A DNA stretch of 64,000 nucleotides from the NCBI GenBank assembly GCA_965232545.1, contig OZ246979.1, forward strand, positions 5,811,287 to 5,875,286. The letters are read 5' to 3'. Positions 2,197-61,566 of this stretch are shown here, one piece after another (position 1 is the stretch's first letter; the number at the start of each line of letters is the position of its first letter). The translations under genes were made by a program, and so were the position numbers. Below the pieces are notes generated by a model, which saw nothing but the letters and a program-made list of their open reading frames with translations, had not been told where the DNA came from and searched no databases. This stretch comes from Candidatus Poribacteria bacterium (GTDB taxonomy: Bacteria > Poribacteria > WGA-4E > WGA-3G).

Positions 2197-2494
2197 GCAT
2201 TATAGAAAAGATGTAGATATGGTATCCGCCTCCATAACAGTAACCCAAATTCCGACTGCTGATATTAGAAAAAACTTGACTTTTACCCCTACTTCCTGTA
2301 TCGTCTCTTTAAAGCCATCCGTTAAGCGAATTGAGAACCTAAGCTCCCATCATTACAAGCGATGGAACTACCCTGACCACGAATTTTACCGATGTACCTA
2401 TTTTGCTTGGGAATCTACATCCTAAGCGTATTTCTACAAGAAAACAAACGCATCTTTGCTTCTTACAGTGAAGCGTATCAATAGGAGAATCACA

Positions 2495-3514
2495 ATGTTT
2501 TTGCCAAAAAAATCGTTCTCTATTAAAGCCACTACAGCCTTTTCTATTCTCTGCTGCGTTTTATTCGTCCTGTCCACGCTATCAGTGATGGCACACTCAG
2601 GTGGTGAGGTGACCTCTAAAAAAACCGCAACGCCTATCACGATTGATGGAATGATAGATGAAGCGGAGTGGGACGCGGCATTCCAAGAATCTTCACCCTT
2701 GCAAGATATTGTCCCAGATCCACGCGATCCTAAATACGCCCAAGAGTGGTATCAGATTATCCCCGGCGGCGGTGCGGGTAGCGACACAAACGATGGTGGA
2801 CTCCGTGTCAGTCGCGGCAAATTCGATGACGACGCTGATATGCGGGCGCGCTGGGCAACGCTATGGGACGACGACTATCTCTACTTTGGGTTCGATGTCA
2901 CCGACGATACCACACACCCGTACACCAATGACCTAGCAACCCGTGCTGGAGAGATTGACGGGGTATTCTTGATGTTCGACACCAAACACGATGCCCCTGT
3001 ATTCGAGTTTCCGCACCATGAGTTTGATACGAGACATGTCGCCAATAACAGTGTATATGAGGCGGACGATAATTATTGGATCTTTGGTCCCTTAACAACC
3101 GAAGATAGAAGTGGCGTGTGGTCCCAAGCGTTGGGTGCTGCCCTTGATCCGGAGTTAGGAGACCTCGCTAAGGGACACGTCGTGAGTCAGAAAACAAATA
3201 GCGGCTATTCCATTGAGATGCGTTTGCCTTGGTCGATCTTTGAACCGTTTTTTGGTGCAGCCCTCGCGCCGACAGACGGCTTAGTCATAGGATTCGACAT
3301 CACGATTACAGACATTGATGGGGATGCTCCAGGCACGTATGCAGCTCCGCTTGGTGGCGCAGTCGCTTGGTCAAGTGATTTTGAAAACGACAACAGTCCC
3401 GGTGTACTCGGTGATCTCATCATTTCCAACGAGGTTATCGGCAGCGCAACGTCTGTTGATCCTACGGGCAAATTGCCACTGACATGGGGTAAGATTAAAC
3501 ACGACTATCAATAG
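2495..3514 (+). CDS. secreted CBM9/DOMON-like sugar-binding protein with C-terminal GKLxxTWG motif
   Basis: Signal peptide; ITIDGxIDEAEW, WDDDYLYFGFDVTDD, GYSIEMRLPWS; ends VDPTGKLPLTWGKIK; ATG 2495 follows AGGAG. Confidence 0.75.
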   Translation: MFLPKKSFSIKATTAFSILCCVLFVLSTLSVMAHSGGEVTSKKTATPITIDGMIDEAEWDAAFQESSPLQDIVPDPRDPKYAQEWYQIIPGGGAGSDTNDGGLRVSRGKFDDDADMRARWATLWDDDYLYFGFDVTDDTTHPYTNDLATRAGEIDGVFLMFDTKHDAPVFEFPHHEFDTRHVANNSVYEADDNYWIFGPLTTEDRSGVWSQALGAALDPELGDLAKGHVVSQKTNSGYSIEMRLPWSIFEPFFGAALAPTDGLVIGFDITITDIDGDAPGTYAAPLGGAVAWSSDFENDNSPGVLGDLIISNEVIGSATSVDPTGKLPLTWGKIKHDYQ

Positions 3515-3552
3515 TCAGCATTGATGCTGAACCGCGATGCCTTTCTCTCACA

Positions 3553-3589
3553 AAAAATGAGGACGGAGACACTCTCCGTCCTCATTTTT
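3553..3589. terminator. bidirectional intrinsic terminator
   Basis: 17-bp perfect stem aaaaatgaggacggaga/tctccgtcctcattttt between convergent genes. Confidence 0.8.
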
Positions 3590-3637
3590 CACTTATAAAA
3601 GCGCGTCAACTTTTTCCTCTGCTGTGCCTCTTATTGC

Positions 3638-4549
3638 TCAATCATTTATCGATTTCAAATGTTTTTCAAGGAACGTCTTCGTCAACTCTGGAACCTTCGG
3701 ATCTCTGAACCAGCCGTGCCCGCCACCTTCCACCCTGTAAAGCGTAACCGGGACACCCGCTTCTTCCAACGCATCATGTAACAATACGCTCTGATGATAC
3801 GGAACAAGTTTGTCTTGATCTCCGTGGATAATCAGAATAGGCGAATCGTCTTTGGATACATAAGTGATCGGATTCGCTCTGGCGACGCGGTCCTTATGCT
3901 CCTGAATGGGTCCCCCTACCAATTGTGATTCTGGGGAGTCAGGTGCGTCATGCACCAATCCGTCCGGAAGGCTGTGCGCGTCCATCTGAAGGAAGTCAGT
4001 GGGACCGAAATAATCAACCACGGCTTGTATCCGACTGGACACCTCCAGATTTTCACCTACCTCAAATTCCGCTACATCACCAGTCGTGCCGAGCATGGCG
4101 ACGAGGTGACCGCCAGCGGATGAACCCCACGCCGCAAAGCGGTTCGGGTCAAAGCGGTAGGTTTCTGCATTCGCACGCAGCCAACGCACAGCGGCTTTCA
4201 CATCTTCGATTTGGGCAGGAAACACAGCGTGTTGGCTCAACCGATAGTTGATACTCGCGCCGGCATAACCGGCTTTGAGATATTCCTTTGGGTTGTAATG
4301 TGTCTTGTCTCCACCGCGCCAAGCACCACCGTGTACCCAGATAATAAGCGGTAGGTTTTCTCCCGTGTCCGGCACATACAGGTCGAGTTTCTGTCGTTCG
4401 TGCCCATCCGTAACATAAGCCACGTCGCGATATACCGTTACACCGTCAGGAACTTTCGGAGTCTCAGCGGCACCGCGGCGCTGGGTCAGCACTAAAGTCG
4501 CAACTACGAAAAATAGAATCAGGATAAGCGGGACTATGATCTGTATCAT
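3638..4549 (-). CDS. secreted alpha/beta hydrolase (esterase/lipase, BD-FAE-like)
   Basis: VHGGAW, GSSAGG nucleophile elbow, HGDQD, GGGHG; ATG 4549 overlaps the upstream stop (ATGA). Confidence 0.85.
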   Translation of the reverse strand: MIQIIVPLILILFFVVATLVLTQRRGAAETPKVPDGVTVYRDVAYVTDGHERQKLDLYVPDTGENLPLIIWVHGGAWRGGDKTHYNPKEYLKAGYAGASINYRLSQHAVFPAQIEDVKAAVRWLRANAETYRFDPNRFAAWGSSAGGHLVAMLGTTGDVAEFEVGENLEVSSRIQAVVDYFGPTDFLQMDAHSLPDGLVHDAPDSPESQLVGGPIQEHKDRVARANPITYVSKDDSPILIIHGDQDKLVPYHQSVLLHDALEEAGVPVTLYRVEGGGHGWFRDPKVPELTKTFLEKHLKSIND

Positions 4550-54031: not shown

Positions 54032-55072
54032 CTAATGAACAACCCCTACCTCTGCGAGCCAAGCGTCCAGCAGTTCCATATTCCCGAGCGTGTCGTCCCA
54101 AGACATCGCCGGTGCTTGCCTATCAGCAATATGTGTCGCAACCGTATCCGCCTCGTAGGTAAACAGATCCCTATCAGCGGTGACTGTCACTTCAGTGGGT
54201 TCCCTGCTCTCGGACGATTCAACGATAAGCTGCGTCGCGGGGAAAGTTGTGTCAGGAGGCAACGGTGTTCTCGCACCTCGGCAAGGCGATGACGGTAGCC
54301 ACGGGTTCGGAATCGTGAGGGTTCCGTCCGTTCCGTAGATGATAACGCTACTTCCATAACTACATTCAACAGCACAAATTATCTCCGCGATAATATCGTT
54401 CTCAAATTTCAGGGAAGCGACTGCGATGTGGTCAACACCTGTAGGACCTATTTTCCCGTTCCCTTTTACGGAGATCGGATCCAGAAACGGCTTGTTCGCC
54501 GCTGCACCTGCGATCTTCCGAGCCATTGAAGCCGTATAGCCTCCGATGTCGAGGATGCCACCGCCTCCCATTTCATGGTTATAGATTCGGCTCTGTGGGT
54601 TGAAACCCGAACGGTAGCCGAAGGTCGCGCGGATGACTTGAACATCACCGATCGCGCCATCTTGTATCAGTTCGACCATTTTTGTGATCTGTGGATGGCA
54701 GCGATACATAAAAGCTTCCATGAGAAACACGTCGTTTTCACGTGCCGCATCTACCATCGCCGCGGCTTCGGCGCGGTTCATACTGATCGGTTTCTCCACG
54801 AGGAGATGTTTTCCGGCTTCAGCACACTTTATCGCCCATTCCGCATGAAGTGGGTGAATTGTGGCAATATAGATAGCGTCGATATCATCGTCCGCCAACA
54901 GATCGGCGTAATCGTTGTATTGGCGCGGGATGCCGAAGTCGTTGACGAGTCTGTCCATCTTGGATTGGGTGCGACTCGCGACGGCAAGAATCTGCCCGGA
55001 GTCTGTAAAACGCATGCCGTTACAGAAGACATAAGCGATGCCACCTGCACCCATAACGCCCCAGTTTAACAT
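54032..55072 (-). CDS. Gfo/Idh/MocA family oxidoreductase
   Basis: WGVMGAGGIA, LVEKP, GGGGILDIGGY. Confidence 0.9.
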   Translation of the reverse strand: MLNWGVMGAGGIAYVFCNGMRFTDSGQILAVASRTQSKMDRLVNDFGIPRQYNDYADLLADDDIDAIYIATIHPLHAEWAIKCAEAGKHLLVEKPISMNRAEAAAMVDAARENDVFLMEAFMYRCHPQITKMVELIQDGAIGDVQVIRATFGYRSGFNPQSRIYNHEMGGGGILDIGGYTASMARKIAGAAANKPFLDPISVKGNGKIGPTGVDHIAVASLKFENDIIAEIICAVECSYGSSVIIYGTDGTLTIPNPWLPSSPCRGARTPLPPDTTFPATQLIVESSESREPTEVTVTADRDLFTYEADTVATHIADRQAPAMSWDDTLGNMELLDAWLAEVGVVH

Positions 55073-55088
55073 GTCTTATTTCCTCCTA

Positions 55089-56282
55089 TTAACCCTTAGC
55101 AGCTTCTGCGCGCTTGCTTGCGAGCGGATGCATAATACCGGCACCGGGGGGCCAGACACCTGGATCTGCTTTGATCCACTCACACAATTTCTGAGCGTGG
55201 GGTGTCAAGGTTTCCCAAATTTCGTGCGGCATAATTCTGCTGAAACCGTGTTGCGAACGCCACGGTGCGGCGTACTCGACATTAGGCAATGCGCGTATTT
55301 CCTTGGAAAGATTAGGGGTTGCCCCGTGCCATGCGCGGTTATCCCGGAATACACCCGAACCTGCTGTCGCACCGACGAGTGTCGAGTGTTTCATCCAATC
55401 GGGTTCGTCGCCCGGTGGCGGTGGGTTCTGTTGCAGTGTATGAGACCCCGGAATCTGACGAATCGGACCGTTCTCCCACGTTAGATCACACATGACAAAG
55501 TTAATGGTGACAGTCGGCGGGGTCATCTCCATAATCATCTTTTGTGAGGGGACATCAAGGTTTCCGTTGTCGTCTCTATGGAGTTGGAGACCAAGGCGTT
55601 CCGCTTGCCGAATACGTGCTTCGGTGAGGTGCTGTGAATCCCTGCCGTCAGAATGCAAGTGTTGGTACTCTACTGCCCCGGGGAGACAGAGGTCGCCGCC
55701 AGAACCCCACACCCGGTAGTCCGAAGAACCGAAGATTTCTGTGACGATAGGGGTCGTTGTCGGCAAATCTATCATGTTTGCCCAAGCGGCATGGTGCAGC
55801 ATCTGTCTTGAAGCGGAAGAGGTGCCGTAACTATAGCGGTGTGGGAGCCGCCCTGTTTCAGTTATGTATTTTCTGTTATCGGGTCCTGGTATTGACAGAA
55901 TGTCGCGTAGTGCTTCGGCACACCCTTCTCTCCAGCGAGCAAGTTGCTCGGCGTTGAGCAGGTCCTTAACGACAGCGAAACCGTCACGATGGAAAATTCG
56001 AGCGATTTTCTCGGTTTCGTGGGGTTCGCAGATTTCAAGTCCACGAATGCCGTTGTGATCGCGTAACTTTTCGCGGAGTGCCTCGACCTCTGGATCGTCG
56101 TAAACACGACGTTTGGGTGAGTTAGGGTCTGCTACGCCGAATCCTCTCTTGCCGGGGAAGAGATTTCCTTCCGCATCGACGGTTTCATTGACAGGTGTGT
56201 TTTCATCCCATCCGACCCGCGTTTCACCGTAGACTTCCATCTCTTCCAATTCTGCGGTGAAGGTGCGTCCGTTGTTACTCAT
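55089..56282 (-). CDS. PhyH family dioxygenase with N-terminal extension
   Basis: FHRDGFAVVKD, LHSD, WHGAT. Confidence 0.75.
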   Translation of the reverse strand: MSNNGRTFTAELEEMEVYGETRVGWDENTPVNETVDAEGNLFPGKRGFGVADPNSPKRRVYDDPEVEALREKLRDHNGIRGLEICEPHETEKIARIFHRDGFAVVKDLLNAEQLARWREGCAEALRDILSIPGPDNRKYITETGRLPHRYSYGTSSASRQMLHHAAWANMIDLPTTTPIVTEIFGSSDYRVWGSGGDLCLPGAVEYQHLHSDGRDSQHLTEARIRQAERLGLQLHRDDNGNLDVPSQKMIMEMTPPTVTINFVMCDLTWENGPIRQIPGSHTLQQNPPPPGDEPDWMKHSTLVGATAGSGVFRDNRAWHGATPNLSKEIRALPNVEYAAPWRSQHGFSRIMPHEIWETLTPHAQKLCEWIKADPGVWPPGAGIMHPLASKRAEAAKG

Positions 56283-56417: not shown

Positions 56418-57780
56418 TGTCACTTACCCCCATTTTTTTCTGAAGGTATGTGTTAAAAGGTTTTTGTTGTTAAAAGTGTGAGAAACTCAGTAGGTTTATG
56501 ATAAAATACCTCCTTACAGCGAAGGTTTGTAAACGGAGTTCACAAAACATGTAAGGAGGTATTTTATGAAAAAGACGTACCCGAAACGGGTAAATCCGGA
56601 ACCCATGCTAACACGTTTTGCGGAAATATGCAAGTCTGTTGCTATGAAAAAACCGATGTTCCGCAACTTCTGCTTCGTCTTGGTCGCGATAAGTGTTGCG
56701 AGAACGTTTCGGATCCATGAGATTGCGTCGCGCTTGCCGATTGTTGTTGCCCGGGAGAAGTCGAAAGAGAAAAGGTTTCTGCGGTTGCTTGAAACCCCGC
56801 TGCCTCTTGATGCGCTCAAAGGTGCTTGGTTTGTATCGGTTGTCGGTTGGTTTTCCAAGAGTGCTAACGATCATCTGTATTTGCTTGTTGATGAGACGGA
56901 TCTGATTGCGGGGTGGAAAGCTTTGGTTGTTGCGATCCCCTTTCGACATCGTGCGATTCCTGTGTTCTCCTTTATCTATAGCGATGTCCAGATCCGCGAG
57001 GGTATCTATAAGAGTCATAACGAGATCATCCGATACTTCTGTGGCTATGTTTACCAAGAGGCTTTAGGCATTGTGTCGAAACACGACCAACGTCCGGTTC
57101 TGGTCTTTGATCGGGGTTTTGCGCGTGCGCGATACGTCATCAAGTTTCTCAAGGCGCGGGATATCCTATTTGTGATGCGTGTGCCGAGGCATGTCAGTAT
57201 TACGCTTGATGGAAGTCTGAAGAAGCTTGATGACCTCGACGTTGGCTGGTATCCGCATATCCTGTATCAGGCGCACGAACAGATACCGCTGCAACTTTAT
57301 ATTATCAGAGACGCAGGCTTCAAAGACCCGATGTATCTGATTTCAAATCGTCTCAGTGGACATCAGATACATCACTGCTATAAACGCCGCATGCAGATTG
57401 AACACGGGTTCCGAGATATAAAGTCGTGCTTCGGATTTAGAAAACTCGTCTTGAAAAAACCGACACAAGTCCGTCTTGATGTCCTGTGGTTGTCTGCCTG
57501 CCTCTCTTATGGATTGCTTTTTATCAGTTATGAGAAGGTTGCCTCTACACATTGGGAGAAAGCCTACAACAGTAATAACAGAAAAAGTTTTTCTGTTATT
57601 ACTGTTATCAAAAACGTTCTCACGGACTTATGGAACCAACACTTTCTTCTCTCCTTTTTCACGCAGATACATCCGAGGGGGGATCCGCTTTCGCAGGCAC
57701 TTGCCAACTAACTTTCTCACACACAAACCTCACGGTATCAACCACAATCTACCCTCGAAAAAAAATGGGGGTAAGTGACA
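56418..57780 (+). mobile_element. IS4-family insertion sequence
   Basis: TIR TGTCACTTACCCCCATTTTTTT at both ends; target duplication TGGTTAAT (56410-56417 / 57781-57788; 10 bp if the ends are GTCAC). Confidence 0.9.
56566..57711 (+). CDS. IS4-family DDE transposase
   Basis: LVDETD, FDRGF, YKRRMQIEHGFRDIK (Y-x2-R-x3-E-x6-K). Confidence 0.88.
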   Translation: MKKTYPKRVNPEPMLTRFAEICKSVAMKKPMFRNFCFVLVAISVARTFRIHEIASRLPIVVAREKSKEKRFLRLLETPLPLDALKGAWFVSVVGWFSKSANDHLYLLVDETDLIAGWKALVVAIPFRHRAIPVFSFIYSDVQIREGIYKSHNEIIRYFCGYVYQEALGIVSKHDQRPVLVFDRGFARARYVIKFLKARDILFVMRVPRHVSITLDGSLKKLDDLDVGWYPHILYQAHEQIPLQLYIIRDAGFKDPMYLISNRLSGHQIHHCYKRRMQIEHGFRDIKSCFGFRKLVLKKPTQVRLDVLWLSACLSYGLLFISYEKVASTHWEKAYNSNNRKSFSVITVIKNVLTDLWNQHFLLSFFTQIHPRGDPLSQALAN

Positions 57781-57876
57781 TGGTTAATTTGCTTGAAAAA
57801 AGGCTTAGAATTTGCTAAGATAATGCCTATTAGATCCGCGAAACAATCTATAACGGATGGTAAACGCACGAGAAAT

Positions 57877-58083
57877 GTCAATAACCCCCGAATAAATTCG
57901 GGGGACCTGTGTGAAGCGTATACCAAACGTCCACTCCACAAGTTAAACTATTTTCTACAGTAATATATCGTAATATCTGTGGTGGTTCACAAAAGTATTT
58001 AGGATACTCCCCTCGTCCTATATCAATGCCGATATTACGATCTGGAAGGGGCAATATACAACCCGAAAGGGAGATTACAAACT
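57877..58083 (+). ncRNA. omega-RNA (HEARO-like) scaffold
   Basis: 11-bp long-range stem 57967-57977/58031-58041; TAGGA-tactcccctcg-TCCTA hairpin whose loop complements ggaagggg (58044-58051); terminal CCC-GAAA-GGG hairpin just before the ATG. Confidence 0.7.
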
Positions 58084-58258
58084 ATGTTTGTTCCGGTGAC
58101 GAGTCAAACAGGTCAGAAGTTGATGCCTACGCGTGCGAATAAGGCGGGCATGCTGATTAAGAAAGGTTTAGCCACGCCTTGTACTGCCTACGGTTTTTTA
58201 GGCCACTCCCTAAAACAAGATTGTGCTATAATACAATCTCACTGAAAGGAGTTATCTA

Positions 58259-58546
58259 ATGGCCAAACGAAGGAAATTCACCTCCGAGTTTAAGACGGAA
58301 CTCGTTCTGGAGGTTCTTAGCGGTGCGACTTCTCAAGCAGAAGTGTGTCGGCGTCATAATCTCAATGAGGACCAACTCTCAAAATGGAAGCAGCAGTTTC
58401 TTGAAAAAGCCCCCTCGCTGTTTGATTCTACTGATAAACCGTCCAGCGAGGTCTCCGAGAAGCGTATCACTCACCTTGAGCATCTCGTTGGGAGAATGGC
58501 CGTGGCGTTAGACATCCAAAAAAAACTATTGACAGGGTTGGACTAA
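58259..58546 (+). CDS. IS3 transposase OrfA (HTH)
   Basis: RRKFTSEFKTELVLEV...VCRRHNL...LSKWK; A8C slippery site near the 3' end. Confidence 0.88.
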   Translation: MAKRRKFTSEFKTELVLEVLSGATSQAEVCRRHNLNEDQLSKWKQQFLEKAPSLFDSTDKPSSEVSEKRITHLEHLVGRMAVALDIQKKLLTGLD

Positions 58547-58548
58547 CG

Positions 58549-59385
58549 TTGTCTGAAAAGCGATGCTTCATTTCGGCATTGCAAAAGGAGCATTCCGTGC
58601 GAGATATTTGTGGCATCCTCGGTGTCAACCGGGGTAGTTTCTATTATCACCGCCAAGAGGATCCGTCCGAAGCGGTCCTGCGATCAGAAATAGAGAAACT
58701 TGCCGGACAGTATCCGAGATACGGGTATAGGCGTATCACGCAGTTGCTACAGCGTCAGGGATACACCGTTGGGACCCGACGCGTCGCTGGGTTGATGAAA
58801 GAAATGAATCTCTTGGTCTCCGTCAAGCGGGTTTCCGGTCACACCACAAAATCGCTTCAGGGGGAGAAACCCTGGACCAACCGGCTCGAAACCCTTGAGG
58901 TCTCTCGTCAGGATCAGGTCTGGGTTTCCGATATTACCTATGTGCGTCTCAAGGGACGCTTCATCTATCTCTGCCTGCTCATGGATGTTTTCACCCGGAT
59001 GATCAGAGCTTGGCAACTCAGTCAGCACTTGACACAATCTCTGACGCTCAAACCGCTGAAAGAAGCATTGGACCACAGCGTCCCGGAGATTCATCATTCC
59101 GATCAAGGCGTGCAGTATCTTTCAAAGGTCTATGTTACCACGCTCGAAGCACATGGCATTGAGATTTCTGTCGCTCAGCGAGGACGCCCTTGGGAGAACG
59201 GGTATGCCGAAAGACTCATCCGAACCCTCAAGGAGGAAGAAGTCCACCTCAATGACTATCAAAGCATTACCGAGGCGAGAGATCGCATCGGACAGTTTAT
59301 CGAACAAGTATATCACCAGAAACGCCCACATTCGGCGTTAGGATATTTGACACCTATGGAATTTCAGCGAAAAACCTTGTCTTAA
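58549..59385 (+). CDS. IS3 transposase OrfB (rve integrase core)
   Basis: YGYRRI, WVSDITY, HHSDQGVQY, ENGYAERLIRTLKEE. Confidence 0.9.
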   Translation: MSEKRCFISALQKEHSVRDICGILGVNRGSFYYHRQEDPSEAVLRSEIEKLAGQYPRYGYRRITQLLQRQGYTVGTRRVAGLMKEMNLLVSVKRVSGHTTKSLQGEKPWTNRLETLEVSRQDQVWVSDITYVRLKGRFIYLCLLMDVFTRMIRAWQLSQHLTQSLTLKPLKEALDHSVPEIHHSDQGVQYLSKVYVTTLEAHGIEISVAQRGRPWENGYAERLIRTLKEEEVHLNDYQSITEARDRIGQFIEQVYHQKRPHSALGYLTPMEFQRKTLS

Positions 59386-60393
59386 CTTTGCGAAATTGTG
59401 GCCCAAATAAGCGTATGCACTTCACCTTATTGGTCTAATGGTATATTCTGTATCAGACTTAACTATGCGACCGAAGACGCATACACGCAAGATATAGTCG
59501 TTGGTGTAGACCCCGGTAGTAAGAAAGAAGGCTTTACCGTCAAATCAGAGGCACACACTTATTTGAATGTGCAAGCAGACGCTCACAGCAAGGTTGGCAA
59601 GAAAGTTGAAAAGCGTCGTGAGTTGCGGAGAGGTCGAAGGTCTCGTAAATGTCCGAATCGAAAACAGAAAAAGCACAATCTATCTAATAGAGAACGTGTC
59701 CCCGCAGGCACGCGTGCGAGATGGGACTGGAAACTTCGGATATTGGATGGGTTGTCCAAACTGTATCCGGTTACACACGTATGTGTTGAGGATATTAAGG
59801 CACGCACTATAAAACGTGCGAAGAGGTGGAATCAATCGTTTAGCCCCCTTGAAGTCGGTAAAAAATGGTTCTATACCGAAATTCGTAAACGGTGGGAACT
59901 GTTAACTTTACAAGGTTGGGAGACGAAAGAAATACGAGATAGGTTAGGTCTTAAGAAGTCCTCAAAGAAGTTAGCAGAAACCTTTGACGCTCATTGTGTA
60001 GATAGTTGGTGCTTGGCGTATCACACGGTTGGGGGTTCGGGTGTCCCTGATAACACAGACTTACTGTGTGTTTCACCGATACCGATAAAGCGAAGAGAGC
60101 TCCATAGACAACAGGAAGCGAAAGGTGGTAAACGCACACGGGTGGGTGGCACTGTATTAGGTCAAGGAAACCTTGTGAAAAATACATTGATTCAGCATGT
60201 CAAATACGGTCTAACACGACTTGCTGGTGTTAACGCAAAGGGTTTGTTTTCGATATACAGTATGGAAAACAAACGATTAACCACAGGGGCGAAGAGGTCT
60301 GATTTTAGAGTGCTCACACGCCTGAACTTTTACTATAGGAGCGGTGTTTCCTCCCCTGAATGAATTCAGGGGTTTCCACACCGAAAATAAGAG

Positions 60394-61566
60394 ATGAGAA
60401 TTCTACACACCGCCGATTGGCACATCGGACAAAAACTCCACGAACGCTCACGACTTGACGAACACAAACAATTCTTGGACTGGCTCCTTGAGACAATCCA
60501 AGCGCGTAAGGTTGAACTCCTCCTCGTTTCAGGTGATATCTTTGATACAGCCCTCCCCTCATCGGACTCGACGAACCTCTATTACCAATTCCTCTATCGT
60601 CTTTATGATAAAACGGATGCATACGCGGTAATTACCGCAGGCAATCACGATTCACCCCGACACTTGGAAGCCCCACGAGAGTTCCTTGAGATGGGCAGAA
60701 TTTACGTCGTCGGACTTACGGATGAACCCGCCAAATGTGTCTTCACCTTCCCGCGTAACAATCCACGGGTTGCTGTTGCTGCTGTTCCATTCCTCTCAGA
60801 AAGCGATCTCCGACACCTTTCGTATGAGACGGAGGCAGATCGAAGTGAACGCTATCGTGAACGGTTCAAAGCGTTCTATGCCGATTGCGTTGCTGCCATG
60901 CCAGCGGATCTCCCCAAAATTTTAATGGGACATCTCTTCGTTCAAGGCGGAAAAATAAGCAATTCCGAGCGGAATGTCCAGATTGGCGGAGCGACCGCTA
61001 CACATGCTGGCGATTTCCCTAAAGATGTCAGTTATGTTGCCCTCGGACATCTCCACAGACCGCAAACAATCAGCGGTGCTGATTATCCTGTCCGGTATTC
61101 TGGTTCACCGATCCCGCTGAGGTTCAACGAAGCCGATTATCGTAAAAAGATGTATCTGCTGGAATTGGTTGACGACGACACGCTCATCCGTGATGAGGAA
61201 ATTGAGATACCCGTCTTTAAAGAATTATGTACCGTTGAAGGTGATGAAGCATCGGTAACATCAGACGCTATGGCTGGGGACTGGAACGGTAAGTATATCC
61301 AAGTCAAACTGCAATTAAATTCCCCAGCAGTCGGCATCGGCGATAAAATTCGGCAAGCATTCAGCGATCGTGGTGGCGATGTTTTAAGCGTTGAACTTGA
61401 ACAGCCGGAGGCGAAGGAAGGACCGAAAATCTCCGTTGAAGACATGAAGCGTCCTGAAGAAATTTTCGAGCAGTTTCATAGAAAAAAATTTGATGGCGAA
61501 CCCCCCGACGACATTTTGATGCAAACATTTAAAGAATTAGTTCAGATGGTTGAGGACTCCGAATGA
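60394..61566 (+). CDS. sbcD: exonuclease SbcCD subunit D
   Basis: LHTADWHIG, VSGDIFD, AGNHDS, LMGHLF, ALGHLHRPQ, YSGSP. Confidence 0.93.
   Translation: MRILHTADWHIGQKLHERSRLDEHKQFLDWLLETIQARKVELLLVSGDIFDTALPSSDSTNLYYQFLYRLYDKTDAYAVITAGNHDSPRHLEAPREFLEMGRIYVVGLTDEPAKCVFTFPRNNPRVAVAAVPFLSESDLRHLSYETEADRSERYRERFKAFYADCVAAMPADLPKILMGHLFVQGGKISNSERNVQIGGATATHAGDFPKDVSYVALGHLHRPQTISGADYPVRYSGSPIPLRFNEADYRKKMYLLELVDDDTLIRDEEIEIPVFKELCTVEGDEASVTSDAMAGDWNGKYIQVKLQLNSPAVGIGDKIRQAFSDRGGDVLSVELEQPEAKEGPKISVEDMKRPEEIFEQFHRKKFDGEPPDDILMQTFKELVQMVEDSE

Follow-up and report, generated by a model that had tools for sequence, protein, structure and literature searches.

The window, i.e., the whole 64-kb stretch of DNA analyzed here, carries between 57877 and 60397 one IsrB element with a nested IS3-family element inside it. 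The features of the element and of its 5′ flank, all on the plus strand, are the following:

57793-57821, plus strand: tentative promoter-like site, TTGAAA-17-TAAGAT with TG before the −10, in single-copy flank
57857-57876, plus strand: predicted 20-nt guide (ATGGTAAACGCACGAGAAAT), in flank that is unrelated among ~80 loci, its length assumed by analogy with DtIsrB
57877-58083, plus strand: omega-RNA scaffold (207 nt), matched by our own covariance model R1 at 57877-58086
58084-58179, plus strand: IsrB codons 1-32 with the PLMP motif KLMPT (open reading frame and Pfam)
58180-59424, plus strand: nested IS3-family element with orfA (58259-58546) and orfB (58549-59385) and a probable frameshift between 58546 and 58549
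59428-60363, plus strand: remainder of IsrB, codons 33-343 and stop (rebuilt protein)
60342-60383, plus strand: far-end subterminal hairpin, whose apex holds the stop codon (core 60353-60372)
60394-60397, plus strand: ATGA, predicted TAM or insertion-site motif, the last bases conserved in all copies

The ATG of isrB at 58084 follows immediately after the scaffold on the same strand, and the product of this open reading frame (ORF), which begins MFVPVTSQTGQKLMPT, matches Pfam RRXRR (PF14239), the IsrB/IscB family. The IS3-family element interrupts the ORF behind codon 32. It lies downstream of the RNA as the original prediction had it (58180-59424), has imperfect inverted repeats (start TGTACTGCC, finish GCACTTCA) and a 3-bp target duplication (CCT, 58177-79 and 59425-27), and carries HTH_Tnp_1 in orfA and rve in orfB (Pfam). 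When the IS was taken out together with one of the two CCT repeats, a 343-aa ORF ending at 60363 was restored. The rebuilt IsrB was 90% identical to Poribacteria proteins, had as its best PDB match DtIsrB from D. thermocuniculi (8DMB; E = 5e-32, a homologue with an identity of only ~30%), and kept all residues invariant in ten diverse IsrBs, including DPG, ED, H..D, and the PLMP-type LMPT. In the DNA runs, 58178 was immediately followed by 59428 in contigs of intact paralogues, and 59424 was the last base in other copies of IS3, confirming the limits of the IS3 element. The cognate IsrB gene is inactivated by IS3 after codon 32, and the RNA gene is intact. The same samples contained several copies of the IS3 element itself.

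Elements of the IS200/IS605 type have neither terminal inverted repeats nor target duplication. The IsrB element is a nonautonomous element of this type, spanning ~57877-60393 and followed by the motif ATGA: it has two similar subterminal hairpins, one at each end (SL1, 57885-57904, and the far-end hairpin, 60342-60383), as well as a conserved tetranucleotide at the insertion site. Within the 64-kb window, no TnpA (Y1 transposase) gene adjoining the element was found.

Upstream of the scaffold, an IS4-like DDE transposase gene (DDE_Tnp_1; 56566-57711) lies on the isrB-sense strand; it occurs in several copies, with a depth 2-4× that of the unique flank and a right end near 57775, and in the DNA runs ~100 nt of single-copy flank separate this gene from the scaffold. 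The minus-strand neighbors at 54032-56282 are ordinary genes, encoding a GFO/IDH/MocA oxidoreductase and a PhyH-family dioxygenase. On the other side, an SbcD/Mre11-like metallophosphoesterase gene (Pfam Metallophos; 60394-61566) has the element's terminal ATGA as its start codon, and the IsrB element sits exactly between this start codon and the gene's former upstream region.

Relatives of the element were sought by protein in species-representative genomes, and the best 80 of the 257 loci found were used, all of them from Ca. Poribacteria with 73-92% protein identity; up to nine or more isrB copies were present per Poribacteria genome. After alignment of the 500 nt upstream of each start codon (~80 loci), identity to the window was ~0.1-0.3 up to 57870 and 0.5-0.9 from 57877 on, overall a rise from ~0.2 to ~0.8, and the higher level continued into the ORF. 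Every aligned copy opens with GTCAAT, GTCAAC, GTCAGT, or GTAAAG at the column of 57877, where the scaffold's 5′ limit reads GTCAATAACC, and the DNA 5′ of this position is unrelated among the ~80 loci. Thus, the sharp onset of conservation beside unrelated flank follows the pattern of a transposon end, the flank supplying the predicted guide, and the 5′ limit given in the original prediction, 57877, is exactly this onset. Covariance model R1 matched 57877-58086 with 215 bits (E = 6e-64), its sole match in the 64-kb window; it also matched each IsrB locus directly upstream of the ORF, with full-length copies scoring 160-243 bits. No IsrB relatives were found in a scan of viral contigs, and no description of this IsrB expansion in sponge-associated Poribacteria was found in the searchable literature.

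The aligned leaders share a nine-helix, two-pseudoknot fold that occupies the 207 nt in the isrB sense. RNAalifold recovered SL1, the long-range helix, the inner hairpin, and the TAGGAT hairpin, while an all-column-pair search with inspection added S1, the two-part SL2, S2, SL4, SL7, and the two pseudoknots. The elements of the fold, with the support for each among the relatives, are the following:

57880-83/57949-52, plus strand: S1 (AAUA/UAUU), which closes the guide-adaptor region; 94-97% paired, 3-4 of 4 pairs changed on both sides
57885-57892/57897-57904, plus strand: SL1, 8-bp GC-rich hairpin (CCCCCGAA / TTCGGGGG) with a UAAA loop; 5-6 of 8 pairs compensatory
57906-11/57937-42 (lower) and 57915-19/57927-31 (upper), plus strand: two-part SL2, with the loop AUACCAA at 57920-26
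57922-25/57983-86, plus strand: adaptor pseudoknot, SL2 loop ACCA with SL4 loop UGGU; 98.9% paired
57958-60/58042-44, plus strand: S2, the nexus stem (CAG/CUG); 99.5-100% paired
57967-77/58031-41, plus strand: S3/S4, perfect 11-bp helix (ATCGTAATATC / GATATTACGAT); 95-98% paired, 4-6 pairs compensatory
57978-81/57988-91, plus strand: SL4, UGUG/CACA stem with the loop GUGGUU; 5 of 5 pairs compensatory, GUGG of the loop conserved
58000-05/58015-20, plus strand: SL5, UAGGAU/GUCCUA stem with the loop ACUCCCCUC; 99.5% paired
58009-13/58047-51, plus strand: nexus pseudoknot, SL5 loop CCCCU with AGGGG of the linker between S2 and SL7; 97.4% paired
58062-58071, plus strand: SL7, CCC-GAAA-GGG, 12 nt ahead of the start codon; 3 of 3 pairs compensatory (CCCGAAAGGG, CCUGCAAAGG, CUCCAUAGGAG)

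Four parts of this fold had been proposed in the original prediction, and all are borne out: the GC hairpin at 57885-57904, the perfect 11-bp helix at 57967-57977/58031-58041, the TAGGA/TCCTA hairpin whose loop pairs downstream (CCCCT at 58009-58013 with AGGGG at 58047-58051), and the GAAA-tetraloop hairpin before the ATG (58062-58071). Five elements go beyond it, namely S1, SL2, S2, SL4, and the second pseudoknot (57922-25/57983-86). The 5′ arm of S2 (57958-60) is followed by six unpaired bases, i.e., SL3 is absent, as are SL6 and SL8, and the 3′ arm of SL7 belongs to the Shine-Dalgarno sequence GGGAG at 58069-73.

The fold was tested on two alignments of distinct sequences, one made with MAFFT (n = 54) and one aligned to R1 (n = 74). 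Standard pairs filled 93.1% (MAFFT) and 96.2% (R1) of the cells, versus 82.3% and 81.6% in shuffles and 29-45% and 32-43% when the partners were slid by 1-3 columns. Moreover, cells changed on both sides numbered 329 against a shuffled mean of 98 (MAFFT) and 542 against 140 (R1), 32 and 38 of the 60 pairs, respectively, showed compensatory change, and 0 of 500 shuffles in each alignment equaled the observed values. Compensatory changes among homologous leaders, which the original prediction had named as a check, are therefore abundant (38/60 pairs, n = 74). For instance, the CAG/CUG of S2 is replaced in relatives by CCG/CGG, CAC/GUG, and GAG/CUC. Since the pseudoknots were left out of R1, the R1 alignment is unbiased towards them; in the adaptor pseudoknot one position is split between A-U (38) and G-C (29), and in the nexus pseudoknot the fifth pair is split between A-U (33) and U-A (28) with 8 exceptions, all other positions of both being invariant. 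Across the fold, G-U pairs far outnumbered A-C pairs (292 versus 56), indicating that it is the isrB-sense strand that folds, in keeping with an RNA that is transcribed together with isrB. The single-sequence minimum free energy (z = −1.8 versus shuffles) is not far beyond chance and not informative alone, and the case thus rests on the comparison with relatives. In the R1 alignment, the SL2 of the window copy has one C·A and one A·C mismatch. Certain relatives and the HEARO consensus have an 8-bp S1, of which the window copy has lost the three outermost pairs, bar one G-C. A pairing of GGG 58048-50 with CCC 58062-64, also suggested by RNAalifold, was rejected, given that the nexus pseudoknot and SL7 both covary.

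Characterized IsrB omega-RNAs start with a 20-nt guide, after which comes a scaffold built from stem-loops and the stems S1-4 (Hirano et al. 2022, PMC9581776), with a core formed by S1-4, SL1/2/4/5/7, and two pseudoknots; they extend to the start codon of IsrB, whose PLMP domain makes contact with the Shine-Dalgarno sequence, and their TAM is NTGA (PMC9581776). In group A (CsIsrB, K2IsrB, and BbIsrB), SL2 pairs with SL4, SL5 pairs with the S2-SL7 linker, and SL6 and SL8 are absent, SL3 being absent as well in subgroup A2 (BbIsrB) (PMC9581776). The window scaffold matches the group-A arrangement and is subgroup A2-like, a likeness that was drawn with the published layout and that here concerns a host from Ca. 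Poribacteria: the helix order is the same (S1, SL1, SL2, S2, S3/S4, SL4, SL5, SL7), both pseudoknots are wired in the same way (SL2-SL4; SL5 loop with the linker before SL7), SL3, SL6, and SL8 are likewise missing, and the 3′ end of the RNA falls at the start codon of IsrB. A difference is that S1 is cut to 4 bp plus one G-C in the window subfamily.

The omega-RNA of D. thermocuniculi (Dt), which belongs to group B1 (PDB 8DMB), is 262 nt long versus 207 nt for the window scaffold. The two elements agree in three places: the opening ~32 bases, the last hairpin of the scaffold, and the hairpin at the far end. The Dt scaffold opens with GTCAACCACCCCTGACTGAAGTCAGAGGCTTG and the window scaffold with GTCAATAACCCCCGAATAAATTCGGGGGACCTG, the common 5′ motif being GUCAAC/U.ACCCC...GGGGCUUG, and the last hairpin is CUCC-GAAA-GGAG in Dt and CCC-GAAA-GGG in the window, both carrying the Shine-Dalgarno sequence. 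The Dt hairpin over the stop codon (L081 2552-2571) has a 20-nt core, CCCCTGAATGAATTCAGGGG, that is identical to window 60353-60372; identity of this far-end core between Poribacteria and the Firmicute D. thermocuniculi is found despite ~30% protein identity. Positions 9-28 of R1, which correspond to SL1, also match this D. thermocuniculi hairpin at the IsrB stop codon (L081 2552-2571). In Dt, however, the pseudoknot partners are swapped (SL2 with SL5, SL4 with the linker), and SL3, SL6, and SL8 are present. Run on the Dt RNA, R1 gave three short, weak, collinear pieces (E = 0.0025, 0.11, and 0.09), which fit the swapped pseudoknot partners of group B; with matches this fragmentary, R1 was rejected as a direct bridge to group B.

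Considering the abutting IsrB ORF, the transposon-end boundary, the covarying helices and pseudoknots, and the motifs in common with the Dt element, we are highly confident that 57877-58083 is the scaffold of an IsrB omega-RNA (OMEGA; HEARO-type RNA) in an IS200/IS605-type element in which IsrB is broken and the RNA gene intact, and the omega/HEARO-RNA layout upstream of isrB that the original prediction recognized is supported by the same evidence. The class is a known one, of which this RNA is an ordinary member, previously unannotated in its lineage, and the understanding of how omega-RNAs work is left unchanged. A seemingly noncoding 207-nt stretch without an Rfam match can now be annotated, and the sponge-associated Poribacteria, with their large IsrB expansion, contribute a compact, group-A-like scaffold.

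A search with the Rfam HEARO model (RF02033) had been recommended alongside the original prediction. For the window copy, a scan of the whole 64-kb window at the gathering score found no HEARO match, and searches of 701 nt and 221 nt at E ≤ 10 returned chance matches on short hairpins only. Among 13 close Poribacteria relatives, 9 matched full-length at the leader coordinates with subthreshold scores of 23-37 bits, the best being L051 (36.7 bits), and one of these nine loci also matched at its own standalone copy (31.5 bits). The HEARO consensus 5′ end (GUCAacuaCCCC...GGGGCuUg), its GGAUGCU...AGUCC hairpin, and its 3′ ...UUAC tail align to the close relatives, SL5 aligning with the conserved GGAUGCU...AGUCC hairpin in L051. 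The validated Dt omega-RNA itself scored 56 bits versus a gathering score of 83; because a proven member falls below this score, a missing HEARO match is a weak test and not a valid refutation, the model being too narrow. RF02033 was built mostly on other, IscB-type members. HEARO misses the IsrB-type omega-RNAs of the Poribacteria lineage, and the 74-sequence alignment and R1 could seed a better family.

Past the stop codon, all copies share a hairpin and then CCGAAGAT(N)1-5 GATGA, with a few GGTGA or GATAA, after which the flanks diverge; in the DNA runs, other copies diverge after 60397. The Dt element ends ...CTTGA, and its measured TAM is TTGA. In the aligned loci, no conserved motif was found 5′ of 57877, placing the insertion-site motif on the far side, which fits the arrangement of IscB/IsrB elements. 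Judged from the sequence, ATGA is predicted to be an NTGA-type TAM and would lie just outside the element rather than inside it. SL1 probably doubles as a transposon-end hairpin, the counterpart of the far-end hairpin that it resembles.

According to the donor-joint logic described for such elements, excision leaves the guide sequence plus the TAM (Meers et al., doi 10.1101/2023.03.14.532601). By analogy with characterized IsrB systems, the RNA would be read in the direction of isrB, starting in flanking host DNA, and the ~20 nt of flank at 57857-76 would form its guide, followed by a scaffold of S1, SL1, SL2, S2, S3/S4, SL4, SL5, and SL7 tied by the adaptor and nexus pseudoknots. The RNA may then bind IsrB and direct nicking of guide-matching DNA with an NTGA TAM. 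Its target would be the empty donor site after excision, consisting of the guide sequence and ATGA, at which recombination could restore the element. Two metagenome pattern scans for the empty donor site gave 0 matches, and the DNA runs holding the locus contained the occupied form only; one odd joint in run X5 (57801 to 60507) has just 20 nt on one side and is not interpretable.

A 12-mer, TGGTAAACGCAC, occurs both in the guide flank (57858-69) and within isrB (60126-37). Self-targeting through this 12-mer was considered and rejected: it is too short and lies at the wrong end of the guide, and its recurrence was judged to be chance (~0.3 expected in 3 kb by our own estimate), the isrB copy encoding a conserved protein motif.

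Transcripts from the promoter-like site at 57793-57821 would start ~48 nt upstream of the scaffold; two promoter-like sites were found versus 1.3 expected by chance, a count no higher than chance level. IscB elements tend to point the same way as the gene upstream of them (Meers et al., doi 10.1101/2023.03.14.532601), a bias that fits transcription starting outside the element. In four metatranscriptomes, a contig identical to 57934-58058 was found together with many sister-copy contigs, and assembler depth was 2,300-3,750 at 58032-58085 versus ~170-490 over the ORF's initial 80 nt, values that come from unstranded contigs, are summed over many copies, and may include DNA. The unique guide flank of the window copy was absent from all RNA runs searched. 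Contigs with the tail of standalone elements were also present in four metatranscriptomes (loose ends at 58078).

Standalone mini-elements without an IsrB ORF were observed at L066:4321-4620 (plus strand) and L060:277-526 (minus strand); both have the full scaffold (R1, 113-116 bits) and carry extra inserted hairpins, and L066 ends with TATTAGGTGA like full elements. Comparable RNAs with no functional nuclease gene beside them are the standalone omega-RNAs (Altae-Tran 2021, as cited in PMC9581776) and the protein-less, PATE-like IS200/IS605 mini-elements (Meers et al., doi 10.1101/2023.03.14.532601), with the difference that the window RNA was orphaned by a secondary IS3 insertion instead of by loss of the ORF. 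Intact IsrB paralogues, near-identical around the IS3 site, co-occur with the locus in the same DNA samples. Given these paralogues and the standalone omega-RNAs, it is plausible that the RNA of the window copy, if transcribed, is used in trans by a paralogous IsrB. A further-reaching reading, which we regard as unlikely, is that the IsrB copies and the orphaned or standalone omega-RNAs form a pool of trans-acting guides, some on captured host promoters, with a role beyond self-maintenance, e.g., in marking or regulating host loci; a captured promoter would be illustrated by the element here, which sits between a promoter-like site and the SbcD-like start codon (the ATGA).

The main alternative to continued use of the RNA is that the locus is a dead relic, an omega-RNA gene by descent that has been untranscribed or unused since IS3 broke IsrB and is now decaying. 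We consider this a real possibility, albeit one that we tend to doubt. In its favor are the split cognate ORF, the two helix mismatches of the window copy, and its standing as the sole tested sequence missed entirely by HEARO; yet an R1 score of 215 bits is mid-range among intact-ORF copies (160-243), and every pseudoknot base is intact. Likewise, the unique flank was found in no RNA run and no targetable empty-site allele was seen in the population (DNA runs), whereas intact paralogues co-occur in the same samples and the standalone omega-RNAs of the lineage imply loading of RNAs onto IsrB in trans.

That the region acts in cis, as a 5′ UTR controlling isrB translation via SL7 with no guide RNA involved, seems very improbable. 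The points in favor of this reading are that SL7 pairs the GGG of the Shine-Dalgarno sequence GGGAG, that this pairing covaries, and that the RNA ends at the start codon. Against it, standalone scaffold copies exist without a downstream ORF, a 5′ flank unrelated among loci and an NTGA end are consistent with guide logic, and the ribonucleoprotein of DtIsrB includes this hairpin together with the Shine-Dalgarno sequence (PMC9581776). Autoregulation could be a secondary effect. Conservation for DNA-level transposon-end function only, through single-strand hairpins and TnpA recognition with no RNA at all, is hardly credible: 57877 is a transposon boundary, and SL1 (CCCCCGAAUAAAUUCGGGGG) resembles the far-end hairpin (CCCCTGAATGAATTCAGGGG), both being palindromic, but such an end needs one subterminal hairpin as opposed to 207 nt with nine covarying helices and two long-range pseudoknots, the ~5 to 1 excess of G-U over A-C pairs ties the fold to the isrB-sense strand, the same architecture is RNA in the cryo-EM structure (PMC9581776), and an end-hairpin role of SL1, although probably real, would be additional to the RNA role.

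Further variants of the element were observed among the relatives. At L021:2001-2500, an IsrB copy with an intact omega-RNA (222.7 bits) has decayed, its ORF stopping early at codon 165. In other relatives the scaffold is naturally expanded, by a 25-nt hairpin exactly at the place of SL3 of other omega-RNA groups (L030:1768-2003), an SL7 lengthened by ~40 nt (L055:1751-2003), and an insert of ~66 nt after SL7 accompanied by a 33-nt insert in the far-end hairpin (L042:1706-1937).
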